Virus record (IMG/VR): IMGVR_UViG_2660238524_000003
From: a virus
Lineage: Duplodnaviria; Heunggongvirae; Uroviricota; Caudoviricetes
Length of the DNA: 40,665 bases
Strand: one strand, 5' to 3'
Every line of letters begins with the position of its first letter. Positions within the stretch are counted from its first letter, which is position 1. Under the pieces are notes generated by a model. It had not been told where the DNA came from. It ran no database searches and saw only the letters and a program-made list of their open reading frames with translations. Position numbers and translations under genes: made by a program. Of this stretch, positions 5,790-34,582 are shown one piece after another.

Positions 5790-8583
5790 CATCCGGGTCG
5801 CTTTCAGCGCCGTTGACAGGCTGACCCGGCCTGCCGAAAACGCCCGCCGCCTGATGGGGCAGTTTGGTGACTCCATTCAGCGAACGCAGGGGGCGATCAA
5901 AAATCTCGAGCGTCAGGCGCGTTCATTTGAGCGCGCCCGCGACGCTGTCAGTAAAGCGGATGCGGGTATCGTGAAAGCACGACGCCAGCTTAACGCCCTT
6001 AATCAGTTACAACGCACGGGTACAGTGCTCAGCGAAAAACAACAAAAGCTGATGCAGCAGTTAAGCACCCGGCTTGAACGCCTGAATGAATCGCGCACAC
6101 GGGAAATTCAGAAAATGCGGGAGCTTGGCGGAGAACTGAAACGCCACGGCATTTCCCTGACAGGCAGCGATAACACCATCCAGCAGGCCATCAGACGCAC
6201 CGAACAATACAACAACCAGCTTGAACGCGAACGGCAGGCGCTTGCGCGTGTAACGCAGGCTCGTGAGCGGTATTCGCGCGCGCAGGAAACCGCGGGAAAA
6301 CTGAAAACAGGTGGTGCGCTGGCAATTGGTGCGGCAGCGGCGGGCGGCTATGCTGCCGGGCGTTTTTTGCAGCCCGCGATCGGGTTCGGCAAAGAGATGT
6401 CCCGCGTTCAGGCGCTGACGCGAATCGACAAAAACAGCCCGCAGTTTAAGGCGCTGCGTGAGCAGGCGTTAAAACTTGGCTCTGAAACACAGTTTACTGC
6501 GAGTGATGCCGCCAGTGGGCAGAGCTTTCTGGCAATGGCTGGTTTTACTCCGCAGGCCATTCAGGCCGCATTGCCCGGTGTTCTTAATATGGCGCTGGCA
6601 GGTGGCGTCGAACTCGGCGAGACGGCTGATATAGGCTCCAATATCCTCACACAGTTCAACCTGACAGCCGATCAAATGGACCGGGTTGGCGATACGCTGA
6701 CAGCGGCATTCACCCGGACCAATACTGATTTACGCGCGCTGGGCGAAACCATGAAGTATACCGGTCCGGTTGCCGCAAAACTTGGTATCAGTCTTGAAGA
6801 AGCGGCAGCCATGGCCGGGATGCTTGCCAATAATGGTCTTCGTGGAAGCGATGCTGGTACGGCCATGCGCGCAAGTCTGTCCCGCCTTGCATCACCGCCA
6901 AAAGCTGCGGCTGATGCGCTGAAAGAGCTGGGGGTGTCAGTTGCTGACGCCAGAGGCAAAATGCGCCCGATGGAGGATGTGCTGCTTGATCTCTATAAGG
7001 CGACACAAAAATACGGACAGGTGGACCAGGTTTCCTTCTTCAAGGACATCGCCGGAGAAGAGGCGTTCGTTGGTTTGCAGACGCTTGTTGCGGCGGCTGG
7101 TTCAGGAGAGCTGCAAAAACTGACCAGAGAATTGCAGGGGGCAAGGGGAGAGGCCGATCGCGTTGCAAAAGTAATGGCCGATAATCTTGATGGGGACCTG
7201 AAAAATCTCGACAGCGCATGGGAAGGTCTTCGTATTCGCATCAGTGATCTGGTTGACGGTCCGCTGCGTTCTGTCACGCAGTGGCTCACGCGGGTGCTTG
7301 AAAAAATCACCTCGCTGGCGCAGGCCCATCCGGTACTGACGCGCCAGCTACTGATAGCAGGCGGTGCGTTGCTGGCAATGACTGCAACGGTTGGCTCGTT
7401 GTCGCTGGCTATTGGTGTGCTTGCTGGCCCGCTGGCAAAACTGCGTCTTGGCTTTTCCCTCCTGACCGGTTCAATGAATGCTGTCAGACTCCTGCCAGCA
7501 CTATGGGGAATGGTGACGGGTTCCGTTTCGTTACTGGGGGGCGCTATCGGGGCGTTGTTCAGTCCGGTCGGCCTTATCGTGGCTGCGCTTGCCGGAGCTG
7601 CCGTTCTCATCTGGAAATACTGGGATCCCATCAGGGCATTTTTTGCCGGGGTGTTCAGCGGGATTATGGAAAGGCTGACCCCGTTGCGCGAAACCTTTGA
7701 ACGGTTTGGTCCTGTTTTTGACGCAATCGGGAGTGGGATCAGCCAGGTGTTTAACTGGTTTAAATCGCTGCTGTCTCCGATGGAGTCCAGCAAGGAAACT
7801 CTGGATAAATGTACCAGTGCTGGCGAGATATTCGGTAACGTTCTTGGCGGTGCGTTACAACTTGTTCTGACACCTGCAAAAATGTTGCTGGATACGCTGG
7901 CGTGGATACTTGAAAAGCTTGGTGTGCTTCCGGATGAAGCGGAAAGGGCGCGCAAGAAAATCGAAGACGCACAGCGTGCGGCCATTCTTCAGGACAAGGT
8001 TGCCTTGCTTCAGGGGGACCTGGCGAAAATCAATCCGCCGAAGCCTGTGGAAAATGGCAATGGCACCGGAGGTGATAACCCCAAAGACAATAAACCGCTC
8101 ACAGACAGCAATACCGGTACGCTGCGCAGACTCAGCAAAATTGCTGATAACACAGGTAAGCTGGTTGAGGAGACGAAAAAACGCATTGGCCCCGGCGATA
8201 TTGTCTTTAAAAACCTGCCCCGAGCACTTGCTGTTCGTGGGGAGTGGCAGGAGCGGAAGATTGCGCAGGTCAGTAAGCCTGCCCCCGCAATTAATATCAC
8301 ACCCGTGGTCCCGGCTCCGCTGCCTCCGGCGCTGGTCCCTGTTGTTGCGGCCAGCTCCCGCCCGGTGGCGGAGGCTATACGATCTCCAGTGGCATCAGTT
8401 CCTGTAACTTCCCGTAACCGGGAGCCTGTTGCCTCCGGATTTGGTGGTGAAATTCATGTTCATCTGCATAACGTTGTTACGCAGAATCCCCGCGAACTGG
8501 CGAAACTGGTCGGTGAAATGGTCAGGGCAGAAATGGAACGGCGCGCCCGTGCCGGGCGTGGCAGTTTTTACGATAAAGATTGA
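5767..8583 (+). CDS. tail tape measure protein T
   Basis: About 940 aa, coiled-coil N-terminus and Ala/Gly-rich hydrophobic core. Start ambiguous (GTG 5740, ATG 5767 or 5776). Confidence 0.9.
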   Translation: MQIMKTLDIRVAFSAVDRLTRPAENARRLMGQFGDSIQRTQGAIKNLERQARSFERARDAVSKADAGIVKARRQLNALNQLQRTGTVLSEKQQKLMQQLSTRLERLNESRTREIQKMRELGGELKRHGISLTGSDNTIQQAIRRTEQYNNQLERERQALARVTQARERYSRAQETAGKLKTGGALAIGAAAAGGYAAGRFLQPAIGFGKEMSRVQALTRIDKNSPQFKALREQALKLGSETQFTASDAASGQSFLAMAGFTPQAIQAALPGVLNMALAGGVELGETADIGSNILTQFNLTADQMDRVGDTLTAAFTRTNTDLRALGETMKYTGPVAAKLGISLEEAAAMAGMLANNGLRGSDAGTAMRASLSRLASPPKAAADALKELGVSVADARGKMRPMEDVLLDLYKATQKYGQVDQVSFFKDIAGEEAFVGLQTLVAAAGSGELQKLTRELQGARGEADRVAKVMADNLDGDLKNLDSAWEGLRIRISDLVDGPLRSVTQWLTRVLEKITSLAQAHPVLTRQLLIAGGALLAMTATVGSLSLAIGVLAGPLAKLRLGFSLLTGSMNAVRLLPALWGMVTGSVSLLGGAIGALFSPVGLIVAALAGAAVLIWKYWDPIRAFFAGVFSGIMERLTPLRETFERFGPVFDAIGSGISQVFNWFKSLLSPMESSKETLDKCTSAGEIFGNVLGGALQLVLTPAKMLLDTLAWILEKLGVLPDEAERARKKIEDAQRAAILQDKVALLQGDLAKINPPKPVENGNGTGGDNPKDNKPLTDSNTGTLRRLSKIADNTGKLVEETKKRIGPGDIVFKNLPRALAVRGEWQERKIAQVSKPAPAINITPVVPAPLPPALVPVVAASSRPVAEAIRSPVASVPVTSRNREPVASGFGGEIHVHLHNVVTQNPRELAKLVGEMVRAEMERRARAGRGSFYDKD

Positions 8584-17273: not shown

Positions 17274-19151
17274 TTATGCTGCGGGATTATTGATTTCCAG
17301 CACCAGGCTGCCGATATCGACGCCGTACGCGGCATTTTTAGTGATATCAGTTAACGTCAGCGCATTCAGCCCCAGTGTCAGACTGTCTTTTATGACCTGG
17401 AATGCCGGGCCAGCCACTCCATTCAGTTTCGGAGTAACCGTGGCACTGCCGGCGGTGAACACCAGCTCCAGCGTCTGCCAGTCGTTACTGTAATTCCCGA
17501 ACTCGCCCAACTTTGTGTTTCCTGCTTTCTTGTGATGCATCAGATTCAGTTTGCCGTCTGTGGTCTGGGTGAAGAACGACATCAGGAACGGGTTACCAGT
17601 CCCGGTCATCGCCACGACGTCAGGTAACGCTACATCGGTATACAGATAAATTCCCAGACCGAACTGATTGTTGGTCAGTGCGCCTGACAGTCGAAACTTA
17701 CAGCTCAGTCTGCCACCCCGTGTCAGCAGGGAGACTGCGTCATCCACCGGGCGCGTCAGGGACCAGGCTTTATTGCTCTGCTTGGTGATCTTAAATACAC
17801 CCTCTGACAACTGAATTCCGCCATTCTTAATGCTCCAGCCCTGCGCAGCAGCATCTCCGGCTGTCGGCAACAGGGAGATTGTGCGTACGGATGCATCTTC
17901 AGACGGCCCCGATGGCGTGTCGCCGCCGGGCGAGGGTTTGATTTCCGGTGCCTTACCACTGATGAAGGCTAAGGTGCGACCGGCTACGTTCAGAATAGCG
18001 GTTGCCATACGATCGGGAATAATGCCACGACGCGCCCATGAGCTGAAATGCGTCTGGCGATTTGATGATACCCAGTTTTTGTTCGTTCGGGATGCCGAAC
18101 CGTAATATCCCTCACTTGCAGCATCCGGATCTTCCGTTGGTGCGTTGGTGGAGGTATTGTTGCCACTACCATCGGTCAGGAACGGCACAAAGAAAACGTT
18201 GTCGCTCTCCCTGTTTTTGTACGCCCCGTAAATGGTGTCGTACTGCGTGCCGTAGGTGTTTTTCCAGTAATACGTCGTGTCACCACAAATCCATGGCACA
18301 CTTGCCGCTCTGCCTCCATGACACTGCGTGTTAAACTCGGTAATGTCCGCACGAAACTGTTTCAGCATGGCCGTAAACAGCGGAGGTTGCTGTGAGTACG
18401 TAGCGGCGCTCATGTCAAATTCGCCCTGCATCCAGCATACGGCCAGCAGCATGTTTTTTGGGTTTTTCTGCAATGCGGCCTTCGTGCGCAAAATCAGGTC
18501 CTGATATAAAGGTTTACCCACACCCCAGCGAGCCGAATCCTGACTGGCTCCTGTGGACTCGCTGAATGTCCCCTCCGCGCCCTGGGTGAATGCCGAACCA
18601 CCACGACAGCATGGAACCAGTAAAATCCCGGCATTCTGTGGAATGTAAGGCAACAGGCGTTTGGCAATATGCAAGCCCTGTCCGACACAGCCATACTGCC
18701 CTTTGCTCAGGTCTGCATTCGGGTGATTCAGTGCGCTCATATCCTGAACATCATGCAGGCAGTGGTCTGCCGGAATGATGTCGTTAAATGCGCATGCTTT
18801 ACCACCGGGAGTCACTGTGTTGCGACGGGCCAGTTGCTTAATGCGTGGGTGGGGCGCATCGTAAGAATCCGGCAGCGGCATTCCCTCACCATATGACATG
18901 GCATTGGATTGACCAGCAAGTACCACCACGTAATACCACTCCGGCACGCTGCCGTGCTGGGGGGAATCAGGTGAGATGTCTGTAGTGCCATCGGCCACCA
19001 TTGCCTGCATTAGATACCACGGGGTGCCGGGTTCGTAGGCAACCCGCGTCTCCCCCTGAAGATGCCACCCTTTCGCAAGATGTTCATTCACCTTTTGAGT
19101 CAGTTCAGCCTGTGTCATGGCTGTAATCAGTGCAAAGTTCTTACTGGTCAT
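17274..19151 (-). CDS. SGNH-hydrolase esterase, sialate O-acetylesterase (NanS-p)-like cargo protein
   Basis: 625 aa; GQSN block-I motif (VVVLAGQSNAMSYGEG) of the SASA esterase family, with N-terminal extra domain and long C-terminal domain. No P2 equivalent between lysC and R. Confidence 0.7.
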   Translation of the reverse strand: MTSKNFALITAMTQAELTQKVNEHLAKGWHLQGETRVAYEPGTPWYLMQAMVADGTTDISPDSPQHGSVPEWYYVVVLAGQSNAMSYGEGMPLPDSYDAPHPRIKQLARRNTVTPGGKACAFNDIIPADHCLHDVQDMSALNHPNADLSKGQYGCVGQGLHIAKRLLPYIPQNAGILLVPCCRGGSAFTQGAEGTFSESTGASQDSARWGVGKPLYQDLILRTKAALQKNPKNMLLAVCWMQGEFDMSAATYSQQPPLFTAMLKQFRADITEFNTQCHGGRAASVPWICGDTTYYWKNTYGTQYDTIYGAYKNRESDNVFFVPFLTDGSGNNTSTNAPTEDPDAASEGYYGSASRTNKNWVSSNRQTHFSSWARRGIIPDRMATAILNVAGRTLAFISGKAPEIKPSPGGDTPSGPSEDASVRTISLLPTAGDAAAQGWSIKNGGIQLSEGVFKITKQSNKAWSLTRPVDDAVSLLTRGGRLSCKFRLSGALTNNQFGLGIYLYTDVALPDVVAMTGTGNPFLMSFFTQTTDGKLNLMHHKKAGNTKLGEFGNYSNDWQTLELVFTAGSATVTPKLNGVAGPAFQVIKDSLTLGLNALTLTDITKNAAYGVDIGSLVLEINNPAA

Positions 19152-24105: not shown

Positions 24106-25857
24106 ATGATTCAGGACGCTTTTGTGCGCCAGCGTGCGCGGCAACTTTACTGGCAGGGTTATCCGCCCGCAGAAATATCACGTCTGATGGGAATAAACCC
24201 GAACACGATTTATGCGTGGAAAAAACGTGACCAGTGGGATGAAACGCCACCCGTGCAGCGTGTCACGCAGTCCATCGATGCGCGCCTCATCCAGCTTACT
24301 GAAAAACAGAATAAAACAGGCGGTGACTTTAAGGAAATAGACCTGCTGACCCGGCAGCTTAAAAAGCTGCATGATGGCCAGCCGGATGTGATGGCCGCAG
24401 GAAAGAAAGGCCGGGCGAAAAAACTCAAAAATCATTTCACGCCGGAACAGATTGCCGCACTGCGGGAAAAAATCATCAGCAGGCTGGAGTGGCATCAGCG
24501 GGGCTGGTTTGACTCCCTGACCCTTTGCAGGGAAGCCGGGATACGTAACAGGATGATCCTGAAATCCCGACAGATTGGGGCGACCTGGTATTTTGCACAG
24601 GAAGCACTGCTGATGGCGCTGCGTGACGATGTGGCGCAACCTTACCAGCGTAACCAGATTTTTTTGTCTGCGTCGCGTCGTCAGGCGTTCCAGTTTAAAA
24701 GCATTATTCAGAAGGCCGCGGCTGAAGTTGATGTGGAGCTGAAAGGGGGCGATAAAATCATCCTCTCCAACGGCGCAGAGCTGCATTTTCTCGGCACTTC
24801 TGCTGCGTCGGCACAGTCCTATACGGGCAATTTTTATTTTGATGAATTTTTCTGGGTCAGTCGCTTTGCTGAACTGCGCAAGGTGGCTGGCGCTATGGCA
24901 ACCCTCAGCGGACTGCGGCGCACCTACTTCTCCACGCCATCCACCGAAACGCACGAGGCATACGCCTACTGGAACGGCGACCGCTGGAACGAGAAAAAGG
25001 CCTCGCATAAACGCCAGCGTTTTTCTGTGGACTGGAAAACGCTGCATAATGGGCTTATCTGCCCTGACCGGACGTGGCGGCAAATTGTCACGCTGGAAGA
25101 TGTGGTTAATCACGGCTGGAAACACACCGATATCGACGAAATTCGTGATGAAAACACCGAAGACGAGTTCCTCAATCTCTATATGTGTGAGTTTGTCCGC
25201 GAAGGGGAATCGGCATTTAACCTGAATATCCTGATTGGCTGCGGTGTTGACGGATACGACGACTGGAAAGACTGGAAACCTTTTGCTCCCCGCCCGATGG
25301 GGAATCGTCCGGTATGGATTGGGTATGACGCAAACGGCAGTAGTGGCAACGGCGACAGCGGCGCTGTGTCCGTGGTGGTTCCTCCGGCTGTTCCTGGCGG
25401 CCGTTTTCGAACGGTGGAGACGCGACGCGTTCAGGGGCTGGAGTTTGAAGAACAGGCCAGAGTCATTGAAGAGTTCACGTGTCGCTACAACGTGGAACAC
25501 ATCGGCATTGATGTGACGGGCGGGAACGGGGAGGCTGTTTATCAGATAGTGAAGCGGTTTTTCCCTGCTGCTATTCCGTACACCTTCACGCTGTCATCAA
25601 AACGGTCGCTGGTACTGAAAATGCTGCAAATAATGCGTGCCGGGCGGTGGGAATACGATCGCGCCGAACGCGAGCTGGTCGCGGCCTTTAACGCCGTGCG
25701 TAAGGTGAAAACACCGGGCGGCTTTATCACTTACGAAACGGACCGCGCGAGGGGGATCAGCCACGGCGACCTTGCGTGGGCAACCATGCTTGCTGTCATT
25801 AACGAACCAATTGGCGGCGAAGGAGAAAACGAGCGTTTCATGGTTATGGAGTTCTGA
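24106..25857 (+). CDS. terminase ATPase (large) subunit P
   Basis: 583 aa, size and position as P2 gpP. Confidence 0.93.
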   Translation: MIQDAFVRQRARQLYWQGYPPAEISRLMGINPNTIYAWKKRDQWDETPPVQRVTQSIDARLIQLTEKQNKTGGDFKEIDLLTRQLKKLHDGQPDVMAAGKKGRAKKLKNHFTPEQIAALREKIISRLEWHQRGWFDSLTLCREAGIRNRMILKSRQIGATWYFAQEALLMALRDDVAQPYQRNQIFLSASRRQAFQFKSIIQKAAAEVDVELKGGDKIILSNGAELHFLGTSAASAQSYTGNFYFDEFFWVSRFAELRKVAGAMATLSGLRRTYFSTPSTETHEAYAYWNGDRWNEKKASHKRQRFSVDWKTLHNGLICPDRTWRQIVTLEDVVNHGWKHTDIDEIRDENTEDEFLNLYMCEFVREGESAFNLNILIGCGVDGYDDWKDWKPFAPRPMGNRPVWIGYDANGSSGNGDSGAVSVVVPPAVPGGRFRTVETRRVQGLEFEEQARVIEEFTCRYNVEHIGIDVTGGNGEAVYQIVKRFFPAAIPYTFTLSSKRSLVLKMLQIMRAGRWEYDRAERELVAAFNAVRKVKTPGGFITYETDRARGISHGDLAWATMLAVINEPIGGEGENERFMVMEF

Positions 25858-26903
25858 TGAGCAGAAAAAATAAAAAAGTGCGCATGAGTTCACGCATTGA
25901 TCTCGCTGATGCGCTCAGGAAAGAATCATCGCTCAGTGCATTCACATTTGATGGTCCTTATCGCCTGACCGGGCATGACCTGCTGGACAATATGTACTGT
26001 GCTGATAACGGGCGGTGGTATGAAACCCCGGTGGACTGGTACGGTCTGGCAAGAGCAGCCCGGCAAACGTCCTGGCATCAGTCTGCGCTTTACTTTAAGC
26101 GCAATGTATTACTCGGTTGCTACATCCCGCACCCGCTGCTTTCCCGGCAGGATTTCTCGGCGCTGGCGCTGGACTGGTTTGTGTTCGGTAACGCATTCCT
26201 TGAGCTTCGAAGCAATATGCTCGGCGAACCGCTTAAATTACGGCACGCCCTGGCGAAATACATGCGACGCGGAAGCGATCTTGAATCATGGTGGTATGTG
26301 CAGGATGGCAAGGACGCGTTTCAGTTTCGTCCTGGCAAAGTGTGCCACCTGATGAATCCGGATATTAACCAGGAAATCTACGGCATGCCGGAATATCTTG
26401 GCGCATTACTCTCGGCCAGCCTTTCTCATTCGGCGGACATGTTCAGAAAACTGTACTACGACAACGGATCCCACGCCGGGTGCATCATCTACATCGGTGC
26501 AGCGCAGGTAAACCGCGAAAGCATGGACTCCCTGAAAGAAACGCTACAGGGGGCACGTGGTGGTGGTGCGTTTAAAAACGTGCTCATTCATGCGCCCAAC
26601 GGGGGCAAAGAGGGGGTGCAAATTTTGCCGTTCCAGCAGATCACCGCAAAAGATGAATTCATGAATGTTAAGGCGGCATCCCGTGATGATGTGCTGGCTG
26701 CGCACCGCGTTCCGCCGCAACTGATGGGGGCGATGCCGGGCGAAAAAAGTGCGTTTGGCGATGTGGAGAAGGCAGCGCGGGTTTACGCAATTAACGAGCT
26801 GATGCCCGTTATGGAGGCTATGAAGCACATCAATGACTGGCTTGGCGAAGAGGTGATCCGTTTTAACTCTTATGCTCTTCTTGATGAAAAAACAGCCCCG
26901 TGA
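25857..26903 (+). CDS. portal protein Q
   Basis: 348 aa, size and position as P2 gpQ; TGATG overlap with P. Confidence 0.93.
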   Translation: MSRKNKKVRMSSRIDLADALRKESSLSAFTFDGPYRLTGHDLLDNMYCADNGRWYETPVDWYGLARAARQTSWHQSALYFKRNVLLGCYIPHPLLSRQDFSALALDWFVFGNAFLELRSNMLGEPLKLRHALAKYMRRGSDLESWWYVQDGKDAFQFRPGKVCHLMNPDINQEIYGMPEYLGALLSASLSHSADMFRKLYYDNGSHAGCIIYIGAAQVNRESMDSLKETLQGARGGGAFKNVLIHAPNGGKEGVQILPFQQITAKDEFMNVKAASRDDVLAAHRVPPQLMGAMPGEKSAFGDVEKAARVYAINELMPVMEAMKHINDWLGEEVIRFNSYALLDEKTAP

Positions 26904-26917
26904 TGGGGCTGTCCTTT

Positions 26918-27442
26918 TTACCAGAGTTGAACCATTTTCTGGGTGCCGTCAGGCTTGAGATTATCAATTTCAGAGAGAACGTAATATTGAATGGCTTCAC
27001 AAACGGTGGTGTAGGGTGAATTACCTTCTTTAAGTGGCACGATATTATTATTAACGCGAACCTGTATTTCATCGTTATACATTGCGATCGAAACAGGAGT
27101 GTGCACGAACGCGACTTCGCCAGGTGTGTCGTCAACCACCGTTTCAATACTAAAAGTCAGTTTTCGCTCATCATTGCTGCCCCGTGCTTTGGGGGTAGCG
27201 GCAGGGATCTGGGATAAAGGCATTCTGCGAAATCCTTCGGCTGCTTCCAGTCCGCATGAAACGTAATGCTGGCGATTACCGTCGCTATCTGTCCAGGTCT
27301 GTGATGGCAGCTCCAGCGAGATTTCATAAGCATCAACAATGCCCTGGGCAAGGCGTACAAGCGGGGTCAGATCTTCATTGCGGCGAAAGCTCTCCTTTAC
27401 CTGCTCCCGTTTTTCTCTTAACTGCTTGTAATTAATGACCAT
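26918..27442 (-). CDS. hypothetical protein (cargo between portal gene and cos-like region)
   Basis: 174 aa from ATG 27442 with GGAGG RBS 8 nt upstream; no family recognised. Confidence 0.6.
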   Translation of the reverse strand: MVINYKQLREKREQVKESFRRNEDLTPLVRLAQGIVDAYEISLELPSQTWTDSDGNRQHYVSCGLEAAEGFRRMPLSQIPAATPKARGSNDERKLTFSIETVVDDTPGEVAFVHTPVSIAMYNDEIQVRVNNNIVPLKEGNSPYTTVCEAIQYYVLSEIDNLKPDGTQKMVQLW

Positions 27443-27817
27443 AAGACAGCCTCCATTGATTTCTTTGCTCGTATTTTGCACTTATGAAGTATGGTCGGCA
27501 AGGTGCCGTATCGCTGACGCGCTTCGCTTGTCTGCTGCTTCGCCGGGGCATAAAAAATTTATGCCCCGGCTCTCCAGCTCCTGTATCAATCAGATAATTT
27601 CACGACGCCTTCCAGTTTATCGCCACCATCGACGGTCAGACTCTTACGCAATTCCACCGCGTTGACTGCATGTTCTCGCTGCCTCAGTGCGATTTTGACG
27701 GCCTTACCTTTCACCCCATCAAATCAAAAGCCCTCACGCCTTTTTCATGCTCAGCGTGAGAAATATGGCCATTCTGTTGTGTCTCTGCGACATCGTTCAG
27801 GGAATGCTATTTACCCC

Positions 27818-28020: not shown

Positions 28021-28068
28021 GTCACAAAAACCACAAAACGTGGTTATGATTTCTATGAGGGGGTTGAT

Positions 28069-28104
28069 ATGAAAAAAATGTATGATGAATTTGATGGTTT
28101 CTAA
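28069..28104 (+). CDS. 11-codon leader micro-ORF (MKKMYDEFDGF)
   Basis: GAGGGG RBS 6 nt upstream; followed 20 nt later by a strong terminator. Confidence 0.3.
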   Translation: MKKMYDEFDGF

Positions 28105-28123
28105 GCTACGTTGACCTCTAATG

Positions 28124-28151
28124 AGGCGGGGATTTGCTCCCCGCCTTTTTT
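28124..28151 (+). terminator. rho-independent terminator upstream of cargo gene
   Basis: gaggcgggga/tccccgcc 8-bp GC stem followed by T6. Confidence 0.7.
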
Positions 28152-28165
28152 ATGGATGAAATAGG

Positions 28166-28663
28166 ATGAACCCAATAACACTACAAATCATCAGCAATGC
28201 TATTGTTCTGCTTGGCGTTTTGGTTGCCATTGGAACCATTATCTACAATGTGCGTACCGCAAAAAAAACTCAAACGGCCAACTTTCTTTTTGAGAGTCGG
28301 CAAGATATGCAATATATAGAGTCATTGCATACCCTGAAACAAGTGCATCGTTCAGGCAAATCATTTCGTTCTTATGTTTTTCCTTGTGATGGTTGCATAA
28401 TAACAGATGAAGAAATGGCCGAGCGTCGAAAATTTCAATATATTTTAAATTTTTACGAGCGAGTTGCTGTAAGTATTCGTGAAGGTATTTATGATGAAAA
28501 AATGATAAAAAGAACATCTTACACAACAGTTGTAGAGACATATGATATTGCCGAGCCATTAATTAAAGCAATCAGAGAAAGCATTAATTCGGATACTACA
28601 TATCAAGAATTCGAATGGTTAGTAAGAAGATGGAAAGCTAATCCTTTACGGAAAAACAAATAA
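28166..28663 (+). CDS. membrane-anchored hypothetical protein (cargo gene 1)
   Basis: 165 aa; N-terminal TM helix (ITLQIISNAIVLLGVLVAIGTIIY) then a charged domain; AT-rich codon usage unlike the phage core. Confidence 0.7.
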   Translation: MNPITLQIISNAIVLLGVLVAIGTIIYNVRTAKKTQTANFLFESRQDMQYIESLHTLKQVHRSGKSFRSYVFPCDGCIITDEEMAERRKFQYILNFYERVAVSIREGIYDEKMIKRTSYTTVVETYDIAEPLIKAIRESINSDTTYQEFEWLVRRWKANPLRKNK

Positions 28664-28874
28664 TGTTTTACCCTTTAATTTACAAGTAACACAGGGGGAA
28701 GTGTGACACAGAATCCGTTTTCATTTTATGACTTTTTGGGCTATCTAATTCCAGGTGGGTTATTCCTGTTTATCCTTTTTTTGTTTTCTATTGAAATTAA
28801 CCCTGTTTATATAGAAGGTATTCTTAACCATATCCTGAAATATAAAGAAATAATAAGTGTATTTATATATGTGG

Positions 28875-28882
28875 TATTAATC
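28875..28882. repeat. IS1 target-site duplication (left copy)
   Basis: TATTAATC immediately left of the IS1 end. Confidence 0.85.
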
Positions 28883-28897
28883 GGTAATGACTCCAAC

Positions 28898-29401
28898 TTA
28901 CTGATAGTGTTTTATGTTCAGATAATGCCCGATGACCTTGTCATGCAGCTCCACCGATTTTGAGAACGACAGTGACTTCCGTCCCAGCCTTGCCAGATGT
29001 TGTCTCAGATTCAGGTTATGCCGCTCAATTCGCTGAGTGTAACGCTTGCTGATTACGTGCAGCTTTCCCTTCAGGCGGGATTCATACAGCGGCCAGCCAT
29101 CCGTCATCCATACCACGACCTCAAAGGCCGACAGCAGGCTTAGAAGACGCTCCAGTGTGGCCAGAGTGCGTTCACCGAATACGTGCGCAACAACCGTCTT
29201 CCGGAGCCTGTCATACGCGTAAAACAGCCAGCGCTGGCGCGATTTAGCCCCGACGTATCCCCACTGTTCGTCCATTTCCGCGCAGACGATGACGTCACTG
29301 CCCGGCTGTATGCGCGAGGTTACCGACTGCGGCCTGAGTTTTTTAAATGGCGGAAAATCGTGTTGAGGCCAACGCCCATAATGCGGGCGGTTGCCCGGCA
29401 T
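28898..29401 (-). CDS. insB: IS1 transposase InsB
   Basis: 167-aa ORF recognised as IS1 InsB; made as an InsAB' frameshift fusion. Confidence 0.9.
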
Positions 29402-29595
29402 CCAACGCCATTCATGGCCATATCAATGATTTTCTGGTGCGTACCGGGTTGAGAAGCGGTGTAAGTGAACTGCAGTTGCCATGTTTTACGGCAGTGAGAG
29501 CAGAGATAGCGCTGATGTCCGGCGGTGCTTTTGCCGTTACGCACCACCCCGTCAGTAGCTGAACAGGAGGGACAGCTGATAGAAACAGAAGCCAC
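29320..29595 (-). CDS. insA: IS1 InsA
   Basis: 91-aa ORF ([23 protein letters not shown]...) recognised as IS1 InsA. Confidence 0.9.
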
Positions 29596-29650
29596 TGGAG
29601 CACCTCAAAAACACCATCATACACTAAATCAGTAAGTTGGCAGCATCACC

Positions 29651-29658
29651 TATTAATC
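29651..29658. repeat. IS1 target-site duplication (right copy)
   Basis: TATTAATC immediately right of the IS1 end. Confidence 0.85.
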
Positions 29659-29721
29659 GTTCTATCATATATTTCAGGTCACTTCATATCTATTCTATCA
29701 TCCTGTTTAATTGAAAAATAC

Positions 29722-30321
29722 ATGAACAGTAAACTTGGGTATCCTTCAATTTATCTGTTTTCTAAAAGAAGCTCCCTGAAAATAAAACGACATAATACTA
29801 AGTTCAGTATAGTTAATTTTATTCGTGGAGTTTTTTTATTTCCTGTATCAGCTTTTGATAAAGCAGAACATCATAAAACCACACTGCATTCTATACTTAT
29901 TAAAGTCTTTTGGCCGCAAATACGAGATGGTTATATAAATGTTTTTTCTGTATCTACGCTATATCGACGTAAGGGCTTGAGGGGCGATCTTTTTCGCCTT
30001 GCTTATCATTATGTGTATGAACATTCTAAAAATCATCAGGTGAAAATGCAAAACTATGTTGCTTTGTATGGTTTTTGTAGAAACATTACATTTGTTTTTC
30101 TCGCTTCAGTCTGGTTGCTTATGTTCCTGCTCCTTCTATCCTTTTTAATAGATATAAATATCAGACTGTTACCTTTTTGTTTTCTTCTCTTGTTTTGTAT
30201 TGCTGCATCCCGAGTATTTTATTATGGTTTTGTTAAGTATTATCGCCGCTATTCTCTTGAGGTTTTAATGGCATTTGCGGTACTTCAGCACGATAAAAAA
30301 ACTTCGGCAATTTCATCATGA
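29722..30321 (+). CDS. C-terminal ORF of the IS1-split membrane protein gene
   Basis: 199-aa ORF from an internal in-frame ATG; C-terminal TM helices; no obvious SD. Confidence 0.5.
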   Translation: MNSKLGYPSIYLFSKRSSLKIKRHNTKFSIVNFIRGVFLFPVSAFDKAEHHKTTLHSILIKVFWPQIRDGYINVFSVSTLYRRKGLRGDLFRLAYHYVYEHSKNHQVKMQNYVALYGFCRNITFVFLASVWLLMFLLLLSFLIDINIRLLPFCFLLLFCIAASRVFYYGFVKYYRRYSLEVLMAFAVLQHDKKTSAISS

Positions 30322-30332
30322 TTTGAAACATT

Positions 30333-30404: not shown

Positions 30405-30719
30405 TTATTCTGGGAATAAGGTCTGAATATTCTTTTTTATTTTATAAAAATTGCATTCAACTCCGCTAGGCTGATTATCCTGGTATGTTTCCTTGATGCT
30501 AACGGTATTGAAGGGGAGGTTGTCCTCTGGCCATTCGGCCATCCAGTAGGCAAATGCTGGGTTGCGCTTTATGAGCGCTAGCCCAGCCAGAAAGGCCGCG
30601 CGTTGCGCGCGGCTGCGTTCGGAGGCTGGCAGGCTATCGAGGTAATTGCACGCCTCCTGTTCACTCTTGACGGCGGCGGGCTTCAGATAGAAACTTATCC
30701 GTCTGGTTGGTGTCGTCAT
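30405..30719 (-). CDS. ParR/StbB-like centromere-binding adaptor
   Basis: 104 aa from ATG 30719 (AAGGAG RBS), directly downstream of the ParM-like gene; ...LDSLPASERSRAQRAAFLAGLAL... resembles R1 ParR as recalled. Confidence 0.65.
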   Translation of the reverse strand: MTTPTRRISFYLKPAAVKSEQEACNYLDSLPASERSRAQRAAFLAGLALIKRNPAFAYWMAEWPEDNLPFNTVSIKETYQDNQPSGVECNFYKIKKNIQTLFPE

Positions 30720-30723
30720 TGGT

Positions 30724-31683
30724 TTACTCCTTGTCCATTGCGTACAGCCCATTAACCAGAGCAAACTGTGGCACCCCGTCCGCGATGAAAGTCGCATTAA
30801 CTCCGCAGACTTCGCGGATAGCGGGTGCCACAATCTCCGCCCCTCCACCGACAACCATCACCCGCCCGTAACCCGAAAAAACCGCCAGCGCGCGGATCAC
30901 GCGTTGTTTCAGTGTTTCTTCCTTTTCACGAATAACCGCCATCAGGCTGGCGTAATGCGCGTCATTGTGGATGTGCTGGCGCAGCCAGGCTTCATCATGG
31001 CGATGTTCGATAATGGTATTGGCGATGTGGTGACTGGTGCGCATACCGTTAGTGGCCATCACCGACAGTACGGCATCGGCCATCAGGGAAACGCCTACGT
31101 GTGGATCGCAAAACACCTGGCTGATACCTGCCAGTTGCCCTTGAACCTTTGCCACATCCAGCGTGGTTCCGCCTAAATCCACAATCAGCAGGGATTCAAA
31201 CGGACTCATGTCAGCCAGTGCTTTAAAGCCAGCCGGAATGGATTCAGGCATAACCCGCACGTTACGGATAGTGAATGCTTCGCCGTTCTGGTATTCCACC
31301 GGGCGCATAACGTTCGCTTTTTTGCGGTTGATGTTGGCCATGTCCGGCTGTGCGTTTGTGTCGAAATACTCGCTCAGTGGCAGGGTGACAACCACATCCA
31401 CCTCCTGTGGCGTGATGCCTGATTTGACCAGCGCGTGATGAATGGCGATTACATTCACATCGCTGTACTGGTATTGCGTGTCGGTCGTCTGGACAAAGCG
31501 ATCGCTAACCGGATCAAAACCATAGCGCACGCCATCAAGCATGTAGTTCGCGGGCTGCATGCCACCGAACGGCGCAGACCATTCCGACTTGAAGCTGTTC
31601 GGGCTGATGGCGTTGCGGCGTTCGCCATTCTCAGTCCATGCCAGCTTGATGTTGGTGGAGCCGTCGTCGATACAAATTTTCAT
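30724..31683 (-). CDS. ParM/StbA-like actin-family partition ATPase
   Basis: 319 aa; N-terminal MKICIDDGSTNIKLAW and later blocks (VMPESIPAG, IVDLGGTT, VGGGAE) match the ParM/StbA actin fold. Confidence 0.85.
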   Translation of the reverse strand: MKICIDDGSTNIKLAWTENGERRNAISPNSFKSEWSAPFGGMQPANYMLDGVRYGFDPVSDRFVQTTDTQYQYSDVNVIAIHHALVKSGITPQEVDVVVTLPLSEYFDTNAQPDMANINRKKANVMRPVEYQNGEAFTIRNVRVMPESIPAGFKALADMSPFESLLIVDLGGTTLDVAKVQGQLAGISQVFCDPHVGVSLMADAVLSVMATNGMRTSHHIANTIIEHRHDEAWLRQHIHNDAHYASLMAVIREKEETLKQRVIRALAVFSGYGRVMVVGGGAEIVAPAIREVCGVNATFIADGVPQFALVNGLYAMDKE

Positions 31684-31714: not shown

Positions 31715-31826
31715 TTTACGGGATTCTGAAATCCCGTTTTTGCCTGTTTTGTGCGCGCTTCATATATCGCTGCGCGTTTTTTGCTCATTTACGGGATTCG
31801 TAAGTCCCGTTTCTGTCTGTTTTTTG
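31715..31826. repeat. two ~39-bp palindrome-containing direct repeats upstream of the ParM-like gene
   Basis: TTTACGGGATTCTGAAATCCCGTTT (31715-31753, intergenic) and TTTACGGGATTCGTAAGTCCCGTTT (31788-31826, within the 3' end of gene A), 73 bp apart. Confidence 0.6.
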
Positions 31827-34582
31827 TTTCCACTGGTCAGGCCACCCCGCAGCAGGTCTGCTTTGCGGCTGGCGCGTTCAGTGGTTTCACTGATTCTCTG
31901 TGCGTGCTCTGCGTCGCGGATGGCGCGCAGCATGTCAGAAAGCACGGTAACGGGTGTTTTCATGGTGTTCTGGCCCTGCTGAAGTGTGGATGCCAGGCGT
32001 GCGGCGGCTTCAGGGTCTGATGCCCCCAGCTGTGCCAGATAGCTGGCGACCGGGTTATGGCGGATCTCCGTGCTGCTTACGCCATGATTACGGCTCAGGC
32101 GCTGCCAGAGCTGCGTGATTCGGCTGTCCGGGCGGGTATCCGGTTTGCGTACAATTTCAAATCCCTGCGGTGCAATGATGCTGCCGTCAACGTACAGACT
32201 GCCGCCCCGTAACAGGTGCTGCATCTGTTGTTCACCGATATGCAGGCCGAGAGATTCAGCAGACTCCCGCCATTCTTTAGCGAGTAATTCGTGGTTATCA
32301 GGCAAAGGCCGCTGCTGTTTGCGGCTCTGTGTCCAGCTCTGCATTTCATCGCTGCTGTTTTTTGCCTGTTTGTCACGAAGCGAACGCATCAGCGCCCGGC
32401 GTTCGTGTCGTTTCAGTGAGCGCATCCATTCGTTCACTTCAACGCCGTCAGGGAGCTGCGGCCACGGTGCTGGCCGTTCTTCCGGCTGTTCTGTCCCGTT
32501 GTTGTCCGTTTCCTGTACACGGGGACAGTTATTGCCACGAGTCCAAGGGGCGGCAGGGCCGCCCTGAAGGTCAAAACCATTTTCGCGGGCGCTGTCTTCC
32601 GCTTCCGGTTTACGTCTTACCAGCTTCCAGTTATCCGGATGCGTGCACACACGGGAGGATTCCCCGATGAGTGGTGACCAGATCCCGTAAATCTGTACGC
32701 TCTGTTCGCCGTAATCGTTCAGCTCATCTGCGAGGTCGTAGGCGGTGCGAATCAGGTAGTCCTTGCGTGGAACAAGCACGCCACCCTGTTTTTCAATGTA
32801 GGTGGCAAAACACCCGGCATCGGCGGCAGCGAGTACCGCATCCATTGCATCATCTTTCAGCCGTTGCGGGCCTTCCGGATTGCGTGCCATCTGGCTGGCA
32901 AGGCGGCGCAGTTCACGCCACACCTGACGGGAGGGGATGCCAAAGAACTGGAACTGACGGACCCGGTGAAGGCGCGCCCAGCCGATGGCGCGCTCCACGC
33001 TCTCGGCCATTGATTTTCCGGTTTCGTGGTCCACGCGTGGCTTGCCCGTTTTCGGGTCGATGCCATCCACGGCGCGGCTGTCCAGGTTCTTTCCGATGTA
33101 GGTGGCGATGTAGCTGGTTGGCGTGCCTTTTGAGCCGTCGACATACTCCACCTTAAAGCGCGGAGTAATATCATTGCCCAGCTCGTGGCGGTCTTCCTGA
33201 ATGGCAATATCGCGGGTATGGGACACAATGGTGTCGATTTCTTCCGGATGTGCAAAGACCATCATATGCCAGTGCACGGTGCCGTCATGATGAGGCTCCA
33301 CCGTGCGGATGCCATACCAGCGCAGGCCGTCGCGGTTCAGTTTTTTGCGGACCGCCGCAAAAAACGTGTTAACCAGGTAATCGCTGGAGTCGCGCATTGT
33401 GGCCCCGTTCCATTTGGGATTCGGATGACCGTTCTCCGTTGTGGCGTGGTATTTTGACGGGCAGGTGACAGTCAGAAACACCGCTTTGTCGCCACGGGCT
33501 TCGGCCAGAAGTTCCAGTCCCTTCATGGTGGCCATCATTTCTGCCTTACGGTGAACCGGGTTACTTACTCCCGCGTAATACACTGTCTCGAGATCAATCG
33601 TGAACCCGTCTTCATTTTCCAGCATGAAACTTTTCAGGAAATCGCGTGTTTTCTCGCGCTGTGCGCGAAACTCGCTTAACGCGTCCTGGCTCAGATAGGG
33701 TGATGTTTTTCTGGAAACCAGACAGGCGGCGCGGAGTTGTTCTTCTCTCCACTCGCAACGTAACAGCCACAGTTTGCGTTTCCACCATTCCGCACAGGTC
33801 AGGCGAAGGATTGCGCCCGGCAGCAGCTCCGTGTCCGGTTCGTTCCTCCGGTCTTTGTCTGTTGTCAGTGCGTCATAATGTGGAGGCATGGCGTGCAGGT
33901 GTAACGCCATGCGGGCCAGCATCTGATACGCCTTCAGGGTTACATCCATGGTCAGCTCGCCATCGGTCGCGCCAAAGCCATCGCAGAGTTTTTCGAAGGT
34001 GCTGCTGAACATCGCCGCCGTCATGGTGGCCAGCGTCTGTATCTGGTGTTTGTTGAGCTGCGGCAGGTAAAGCAAATCGTCCAGGCGTTCGCGTCCGGCA
34101 AGGGAGCGATAACCCGGTGTCAGCCAGCGTCCGTCAGTGCTATCCAGACGTTCGAATATTTTGCGCAGGGTTCCGCGTGCATAGCGTTCCGCCTGCCAGC
34201 TCTTTTTGCCTTTCCGGCGATCGGCTTCCTGTTTTTTGCGCAGGAAGGAGAGGTGGCGAATAAGCGGATCGCGCAGATAGGACGGCAGCAGGCGCAGCGA
34301 GGCCATGGCTTCATCCACCGCGCCACGTGCCTGTTTTCTGGCGTCTCCTGCCAGTGTGATGGTTTTGTCCTGTTTTTCCTGTGCGTCCAGGCTTTTATTA
34401 ATCAGGTTGCCCAGCGGCGTGGCTGAGAACGCCGCATCAGCCATTTCCTGGCGGCGCTCGTTCTCTGCCCGGTAGGCATCCAGCCAGGAGGAAAGCGCGG
34501 ATTCAGGAGCGGGGATCCCCGTTCCTTCACGCCCCACTGCGTGGCGCGGTTGTTGCCAGTCCCTGAGGTACTCTGCCGTCAT
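31760..34582 (-). CDS. replication initiation endonuclease A (rolling-circle)
   Basis: 940 aa; H-x-H metal motif (HWHMMVF) and position as in P2-like phages. Confidence 0.88.
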   Translation of the reverse strand: MTAEYLRDWQQPRHAVGREGTGIPAPESALSSWLDAYRAENERRQEMADAAFSATPLGNLINKSLDAQEKQDKTITLAGDARKQARGAVDEAMASLRLLPSYLRDPLIRHLSFLRKKQEADRRKGKKSWQAERYARGTLRKIFERLDSTDGRWLTPGYRSLAGRERLDDLLYLPQLNKHQIQTLATMTAAMFSSTFEKLCDGFGATDGELTMDVTLKAYQMLARMALHLHAMPPHYDALTTDKDRRNEPDTELLPGAILRLTCAEWWKRKLWLLRCEWREEQLRAACLVSRKTSPYLSQDALSEFRAQREKTRDFLKSFMLENEDGFTIDLETVYYAGVSNPVHRKAEMMATMKGLELLAEARGDKAVFLTVTCPSKYHATTENGHPNPKWNGATMRDSSDYLVNTFFAAVRKKLNRDGLRWYGIRTVEPHHDGTVHWHMMVFAHPEEIDTIVSHTRDIAIQEDRHELGNDITPRFKVEYVDGSKGTPTSYIATYIGKNLDSRAVDGIDPKTGKPRVDHETGKSMAESVERAIGWARLHRVRQFQFFGIPSRQVWRELRRLASQMARNPEGPQRLKDDAMDAVLAAADAGCFATYIEKQGGVLVPRKDYLIRTAYDLADELNDYGEQSVQIYGIWSPLIGESSRVCTHPDNWKLVRRKPEAEDSARENGFDLQGGPAAPWTRGNNCPRVQETDNNGTEQPEERPAPWPQLPDGVEVNEWMRSLKRHERRALMRSLRDKQAKNSSDEMQSWTQSRKQQRPLPDNHELLAKEWRESAESLGLHIGEQQMQHLLRGGSLYVDGSIIAPQGFEIVRKPDTRPDSRITQLWQRLSRNHGVSSTEIRHNPVASYLAQLGASDPEAAARLASTLQQGQNTMKTPVTVLSDMLRAIRDAEHAQRISETTERASRKADLLRGGLTSGNKKQTETGLTNPVNEQKTRSDI

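Follow-up and report, generated by a model that had tools for sequence, protein, structure and literature searches.

Between the portal and replication genes of a P2-like prophage, two short open reading frames (ORFs) lie on either side of an insertion sequence. This arrangement raises the question of whether they are two genes or the remains of one and, if one, whether its loss was favored and what the intact gene may do. The stretch of DNA analyzed here (40,665 nucleotides; referred to as the window) begins with serS (1-1293) and continues as the prophage, with the integrase gene running from 39658 to the window end; sheath, tape-measure, and fiber genes elsewhere in the window confirm the P2-like type. 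The cargo region is bracketed by the terminase (24106-25857) and portal (25857-26903) genes on one side and by gpA (31760-34582, minus strand) on the other, and the gene order is terminase, portal, DUF4760, the interrupted gene (here called the 4-TM gene, after the four transmembrane [TM] helices of its product), ParR-like, ParM, and gpA. The interrupted gene thus occupies the portal (gpQ) to replication (gpA) cargo hotspot of P2 phages described by Rousset et al. (2022; PMC9122126). The initial annotation of this DNA had called it the second cargo gene, and it is indeed prophage cargo that lies downstream of DUF4760.

Positions 28883 to 29650 are a complete IS1 of exactly 768 bp with the transposase on the minus strand, as judged by its length, ends, Pfam domains, and identity to circulating copies. 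Its terminal inverted repeats, an IRR-type end at 28883 to 28905 (GGTAATGACTCCAACTTACTGAT, plus strand) and an IRL-type end at 29628 to 29650 (GGTGATGCTGCCAACTTACTGAT, on the minus strand), agree at 19 of 23 positions. The 8-mer TATTAATC abuts the element on both sides, at 28875 to 28882, where it closes codons 1 to 60 of the cargo gene, and at 29651 to 29658; element and repeats together span 28875 to 29658. Two 8-mers abutting IS1 would agree by chance with a probability of ~4^-8, this 8-mer occurs only four times in the window on both strands, and the target is present as a single copy in IS1-free alleles. The intact 768-bp IS1 between 8-bp direct repeats reported in the initial annotation is borne out by these exact ends and flanking copies.

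The minus strand of the element carries insA (91 aa, 29320 to 29595; Pfam Zn_ribbon_InsA, E = 1.2e-19, and HTH_Tnp_IS1, E = 1.7e-30), the insB' reading frame with its DDE transposase domain (28898 to 29401; Pfam DDE_Tnp_IS1, E = 2.9e-75), and, read from the sequence, an intact A6C motif (AAAAAAC) at 29338 to 29344. This motif is the programmed -1 frameshift site of IS1, and InsAB' is expressed through the frameshift. Many chromosomes and plasmids of E. coli hold IS1 copies that are 100% identical to the element over all 768 bp; the IS1 copies at two other loci considered in this study (L008 and L014) are likewise 100% identical to it, and the one at L014 carries the annotation of a fused 232-aa product. 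The window copy is complete and presumably active. It shares with the known IS1 family the 768-bp length, the imperfect terminal inverted repeats of ~23 bp (GGTRATG...), the insA and insB' frames, the frameshift motif, a short target duplication, and an AT-rich target. IS1 target duplications are usually 9 bp, and 8-bp duplications are less common but documented; the 8-bp duplication sets the window insertion apart from the usual case, with nothing essential different.

Frame arithmetic relates the two flanks of the element to each other. The segment ahead of it (28703 to 28882, plus strand) has a GTG start, consists of exactly 60 codons, and encodes TM1 and the first half of TM2 as placed by hydropathy. 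The segment behind it (29659 to 30324, plus strand) holds codons 61 to 280 and the stop codon and matches the intact allele. Fused, the two give 280 codons in a single open frame, free of internal stops, which passes the ATG at 29722 (Met82) and ends at the stop at 30322-30324, whereas a junction offset by 1 or 2 nt gives 12 to 17 stops; removal of IS1 and one repeat had been predicted to join the frame at codon 60 without a stop, and it does. In the window as it stands, the frame of the 5' part enters IS1 and meets a stop at 28961-28963, producing a chimeric 86-aa ORF, and the ATG at 29722 makes the 3' part resemble a separate 199-aa ORF.

The source assembly annotates two ORFs here, of 86 aa and 221 aa, and IS1 is highly repeated in E. 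coli (a median of 11 matching places per genome), so that its misplacement by an assembler is possible. The chance that the 86-aa and 199-aa ORFs are two real genes, or that the element was put here by repeat misassembly, is nevertheless close to negligible. We constructed an IS1-free version of the locus (1695 bp including flanks) and searched for it in 5426 complete E. coli genomes. The restored 1695 bp was found at 100% identity and as a single piece in many of these genomes, mostly ST131 (e.g., EC958 and JJ1886); three phage records contain it too. In EC958, the position is annotated as one 843-bp CDS (280 aa, WP_000193205.1) directly after the DUF4760 gene (WP_001068329.1). IS1-free relatives, which the initial annotation had proposed as a check, thus hold one gene rather than two, in agreement with its claim that the two apparent ORFs are a single gene recently split by IS1. 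Misassembly, the other doubt it raised, would not create exact IS1 termini together with a perfect target duplication.

The same conclusion is reached from the protein. Homologues of 277 to 288 aa, at 42 to 48% identity, cover 96 to 99% of the restored protein, and phrog_12528 matches residues 1 to 273 against profile positions 1 to 285 of 288 (E = 8.1e-72). When 1.84 billion representative proteins were searched with a profile, 1124 clusters at 50% identity (E <= 1e-3) were returned, and among the best 150 of these 1124 nearly all are full-length, at ~260 to 340 aa. One homologue, P0005, appeared to be truncated at residue 123; it comes from a metagenome contig on which unrelated genes adjoin it, and was treated as a chimeric assembly. 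AlphaFold2 run on a 127-sequence alignment gave a single compact all-helical fold (pLDDT 91.4, pTM 0.89); a first model, for which 13 close homologues were used, reached a pLDDT of only 55 and was set aside. The restored 280-aa ORF is therefore one gene, since homologues, PHROG profile, and structure model all span the junction and invariant family residues are found on either side of it. The annotation of 86-aa and 199/221-aa "genes" is corrected accordingly to a single pseudogene.

The exact IS1 junction was absent from the 5426 complete E. coli genomes, and the chimeric 86-aa ORF was found on one public contig only (GCA_001030365.1, KQ087679.1). The insertion is private to one assembly. It is also recent, because the target duplication is perfect, because both halves of the gene are 100% nucleotide-identical to the intact allele, and because the IS1 is identical to other circulating copies. 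A single recent transposition of IS1 into this 280-codon accessory gene of a P2-like prophage made the 8-bp target duplication.

The insertion point falls within the TM2 coding region according to both hydropathy and the model. Insertion after codon 60 leaves an 86-aa N-terminal chimera and a C-terminal part that can be started only at Met82. Residues invariant in the family flank the break, with Y14 before it and Y64, G67, S74, E79, R201, and K253 after it, and for this reason we infer that the split gene is a null allele. The insertion spares both the DUF4760 gene upstream and the convergent parMR genes. The event might instead have changed or added a function, with a 199-aa protein expressed from an outward promoter at the IS1 end or with the 86-aa TM1 chimera acting as a modified or dominant-negative membrane protein. 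The 199-aa frame from the ATG at 29722 does keep the conserved central region and TM3 to TM4, and weak promoter-like hexamers occur near the IS1 end. However, these hexamers are on the minus strand only; the sequence scan found no promoter-like site directed rightward out of IS1 and no obvious ribosome-binding site ahead of 29722, and the 199-aa fragment is without the invariant Y14, Y64, G67, S74, and E79. We regard a gain or change of function as very improbable.

A further issue is whether the loss was selected. The initial annotation suggested that a costly or toxic membrane effector had been lost, in which case the IS1 insertion would have been favored in the host. Several other lesions at the locus count in favor of this suggestion. 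At locus L016, an IS1 end is joined after codon 42 (window 28828/28829), and the metagenome scaffold L009 is interrupted at that site by a gap with the 9-bp duplication GTATTAATC on its two sides. A T7 homopolymer in codons 25 to 27 of the cargo gene (28776 to 28782, plus strand), wild type in the window, is T6 in L010 to L012 and T8 in L014; the tract may be a hotspot of slippage by which the gene loses its frame, or the variation may partly be sequencing error, the T6 form being found in several Illumina-based assemblies. L014 also has an IS1-mediated deletion that extends into the DUF4760 gene, and in five complete genomes, including NZ_OX637964.1 (L002), a copy of IS421 (IS4 family) lies just upstream of DUF4760. 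It has entered a G+C-rich hairpin followed by a T-run (28123 to 28147, plus strand), which is 19 bp upstream of the start codon of DUF4760. The insertion duplicated 13 bp (28129 to 28141) and could uncouple the cassette from upstream signals. The 199-aa C-terminal ORF is, in addition, called as a separate gene on 48 contigs.

As a separate observation on L014 (GCA_024546765.1), its IS1, at 1686 to 2453, joins the middle of DUF4760 (~28400) to tail-fiber-assembly genes; it has no target duplication and marks an IS1-mediated deletion or rearrangement of the prophage. Two further sets of sequences were considered as signs of frequent IS hits and set aside. Many draft contigs start inside the gene (restored positions 957 to 995); they are free of IS sequence, and assembly may simply have broken off there in AT-rich DNA. 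A 90% cluster with 860 "partial" proteins includes unrelated MarR/PapX fragments.

Against selection stands the state of the cassette in the population. It is carried by 289 of the 5426 complete E. coli genomes, all 289 covering at least 80% of its length; in each of 45 carriers sampled across the ranking it is one uninterrupted 1380-bp piece, which is 100% identical in 35 of them. The exact intact protein occurs on at least 1000 contigs, and the pandemic ST131 lineage retains the intact gene stably, as do phage records that bear the names of distinct phages. Comparison with an 87%-identical allele gives a dN/dS of ~0.28, that is, purifying selection. AT-rich DNA, moreover, draws IS1 irrespective of selection, and many of the "partial" proteins may be mere contig breaks in such DNA. 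With all sampled carriers uninterrupted, a low dN/dS, and an AT-rich target, the proposed loss of a costly or toxic product is left unsupported and is, in our judgment, unlikely; the label "effector" is itself unproven for the 4-TM protein. The independent lesions in draft assemblies do leave some room for selection against the gene.

The G+C content is 32.9% in the cargo, 25% within 25 bp on either side of the target, and 52% in the window. IS1 has a preference for AT-rich DNA, which suffices to account for the insertion. Since the cassette, at 33% G+C, lies in a window of 52% G+C, the hit was most likely incidental, which is simpler than selection. The best overall explanation of the locus, one that we consider highly probable, is that one recent and most likely incidental IS1 insertion splits a single 280-codon gene of a P2-like prophage.

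The intact upstream cargo gene (28166 to 28663, plus strand) encodes a DUF4760 protein of 165 aa (PF15956, E = 1.8e-34) that has a single TM helix at its N terminus and is identical to WP_001068329.1. Both proteins of the pair appear in Table S5B of Rousset et al. (2022; PMC9122126) as system #3, "DUF4760," with sequences verbatim identical to those of the window pair, 1102 occurrences, and the remark "1 TM in protein 1, 4 TM in protein 2." The proteins are the same, the portal-gpA position is the same, and in both cases the pair lies beside a StbA/Plasmid_stab_B partition module; the window differs in that protein 2 is interrupted by IS1. The cassette is therefore already catalogued in the literature, and the insertion is a textbook event. 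The pair was found neither in that study's table of evaluated systems nor among those it validated (PMC9122126), and PADLOC has no system model for a DUF4760 plus 4-TM pair.

Whether the two cargo genes form one system was assessed from their distribution. They were seen together only in alleles at least 87% identical. With custom HMMs, no DUF4760 gene was found within ~5 kb at any of 90 loci holding members of the 4-TM family (L019-L108), and no member of the 4-TM family was found at any of five loci holding DUF4760 homologues. Homologues of DUF4760 are likewise found on their own, one of them in a P2-like hotspot of Pectobacterium that has no 4-TM gene, and relatives of the 4-TM protein stand alone beside xis/int in lambdoid prophages. 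One allele (L115), with a 4-TM protein 87% identical to that of the window, keeps the pairing, with a dS of 0.28 for the TM gene versus 0.04 for DUF4760; this unequal divergence indicates recombination in which only one gene of the pair was swapped. Because each gene occurs alone elsewhere and because the two have diverged unequally, they are probably independent single-gene cargo modules that are neighbors by chance.

Several other features of the prophage deserve mention in their own right. The hotspot also holds a partition module on the minus strand (30405 to 31683), composed of ParM/StbA (30724 to 31683) and a Plasmid_stab_B ParR-like gene; the latter encodes 104 aa in EC958, and the 149-aa ORF at 30405 to 30854 overlaps parM and is probably overextended. 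Such modules are the commonest "system" of the P2 hotspot (4592 occurrences), and maintenance as a plasmid has been suggested (Rousset et al., 2022; PMC9122126). Between the portal and DUF4760 genes lies a third hotspot ORF (26918 to 27481, minus strand), which is WP_000236495-like, matches phrog_5091, and has no Pfam match. The gpA protein (940 aa) has a Phage_GPA domain at residues 178 to 502 only, with long unannotated N- and C-terminal extensions. In the tail-fiber region, a 625-aa protein (17274 to 19151, minus strand) combines DUF1737, SASA (sialate O-acetylesterase-like), and DUF6645 and may serve the tail as an accessory protein of the receptor-modifying or depolymerase type. Finally, a short ORF with a strong ribosome-binding site (GAGGGGG) starts at the ATG at 28070 (MKKMYDEFDGF), stops at 28103-28105, and is followed by the hairpin and T-run described above. 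The layout of this region (28058 to 28147) resembles a leader peptide plus terminator; alternatively, it could be part of a cos region. A P2 cos sequence used as the query had no match in the window at <=3 mismatches.

We now turn to the protein that the intact gene encodes. Hydropathy places four TM helices at residues ~12 to 30, 50 to 75, 200 to 222, and 230 to 250, and the helices of the AlphaFold2 model agree. Phobius, as given in Table S5B of Rousset et al. (2022; PMC9122126), also assigns "4 TM" to protein 2. The protein has no family in Pfam or NCBIfam, and structure searches found no solved structure or viral model resembling its fold. The PADLOC model for Csx27 (PDLC01605) matches residues 6 to 244, albeit weakly (E ~1e-5, 24 bits) and with the caveat that HMM scores can be inflated for membrane proteins; among 127 diverse members of the family, 72 are matched, the best at E = 2.2e-10. 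The 4-TM protein is a member of a very large uncharacterized family that, from these profile matches, appears to be remotely similar to Csx27.

The summary in PMC7642515 describes Csx27 as a 4-TM accessory protein of type VI-B1 CRISPR that belongs to a wide family. Csx27, an accessory protein of type VI-B1 CRISPR-Cas13b, is like the cargo protein family in having four TM helices and a similar size. It is CRISPR associated, whereas the window protein is prophage cargo with neither Cas13b nor a CRISPR array nearby. Makarova and colleagues reportedly placed Csx27, in 2019, in a wide family of predicted nucleic-acid membrane channels and are said to have described competence, ubiquitin-like, and WYL genes with it. 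None of these three kinds of gene was among the commonest Pfam families of the immediate neighbors (25 families listed on each side) at ~70 loci of the 4-TM family, and no Cas13b was seen beside family members at these loci, a result that rests on neighbor sizes only; we know of no Pfam model for cas13b. The neighbors at the ~70 loci, which come from many phyla, are heterogeneous. Some are restriction-modification, AbiGi, or integrase genes, and others are glycosyltransferases; neighborhoods with polysaccharide-synthesis genes make a role unrelated to defense possible. A search for a conserved partner gene at 80 loci from many phyla found none.

A family alignment (A2) contains many invariant or near-invariant polar residues (D10, Y14, Y64, H68, S74, E79, H177, E181, H186, K189, N192, R201, K253, and E261), with an H-x3-E-x4-H stretch just ahead of TM3. 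This pattern looks like a specific binding or catalytic site more than a simple pore. A 288-aa paralogue (P0023, 44% identity) is extremely common in E. coli, where it is found on at least 1000 contigs (loci L019-L022, gene at 6001 to 6867). It lies in a CPS-53/KpLE1-like prophage remnant, after YfdP-, DUF2303-, and YfbR-like genes and before a PrtN-like gene. Its counterpart in K-12 may be the yfdS/yfdT region.

Taken together, these properties suggest that the intact gene encodes an inner-membrane cargo protein with four TM helices that stands alone and belongs to a large Csx27-like family. Like SieA/SieB of P22, RexB of lambda, and Imm of T4, which are prophage membrane proteins for superinfection exclusion or abortive infection, it is a small multipass inner-membrane protein encoded by a single cargo gene, and its family occupies accessory positions of prophages, either within the P2 hotspot or, in lambdoid prophages, next to xis/int. 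On the basis of this location and analogy, we tentatively propose that the protein might counter incoming phage or foreign nucleic acid at the membrane, in the manner of superinfection exclusion or abortive infection. Such a barrier function, if real, would be lost in the lysogen that carries the IS1 insertion. The broader proposal, that the Csx27-like 4-TM family as a whole (more than 1100 clusters at 50% identity, in many phyla) could be a single-gene membrane barrier to incoming phage or foreign DNA with a specific binding or catalytic site, is a doubtful one.

As a mutation, the insertion carries little weight: it is a textbook IS1 knockout of an AT-rich accessory gene and a private allele. 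It does, however, point to a very common cargo gene, present in 289 of 5426 complete E. coli genomes and with 1102 occurrences in P2 hotspots, which makes it the third most common cargo of the E. coli P2 hotspot. The remote link to Csx27 is the sole lead on a large family that has neither a Pfam domain nor a solved structure. A natural null allele that exists beside identical intact alleles in ST131 makes isogenic comparisons possible and, if the membrane-barrier reading is true, the IS1, IS421, and T-tract alleles would be ready natural knockouts.
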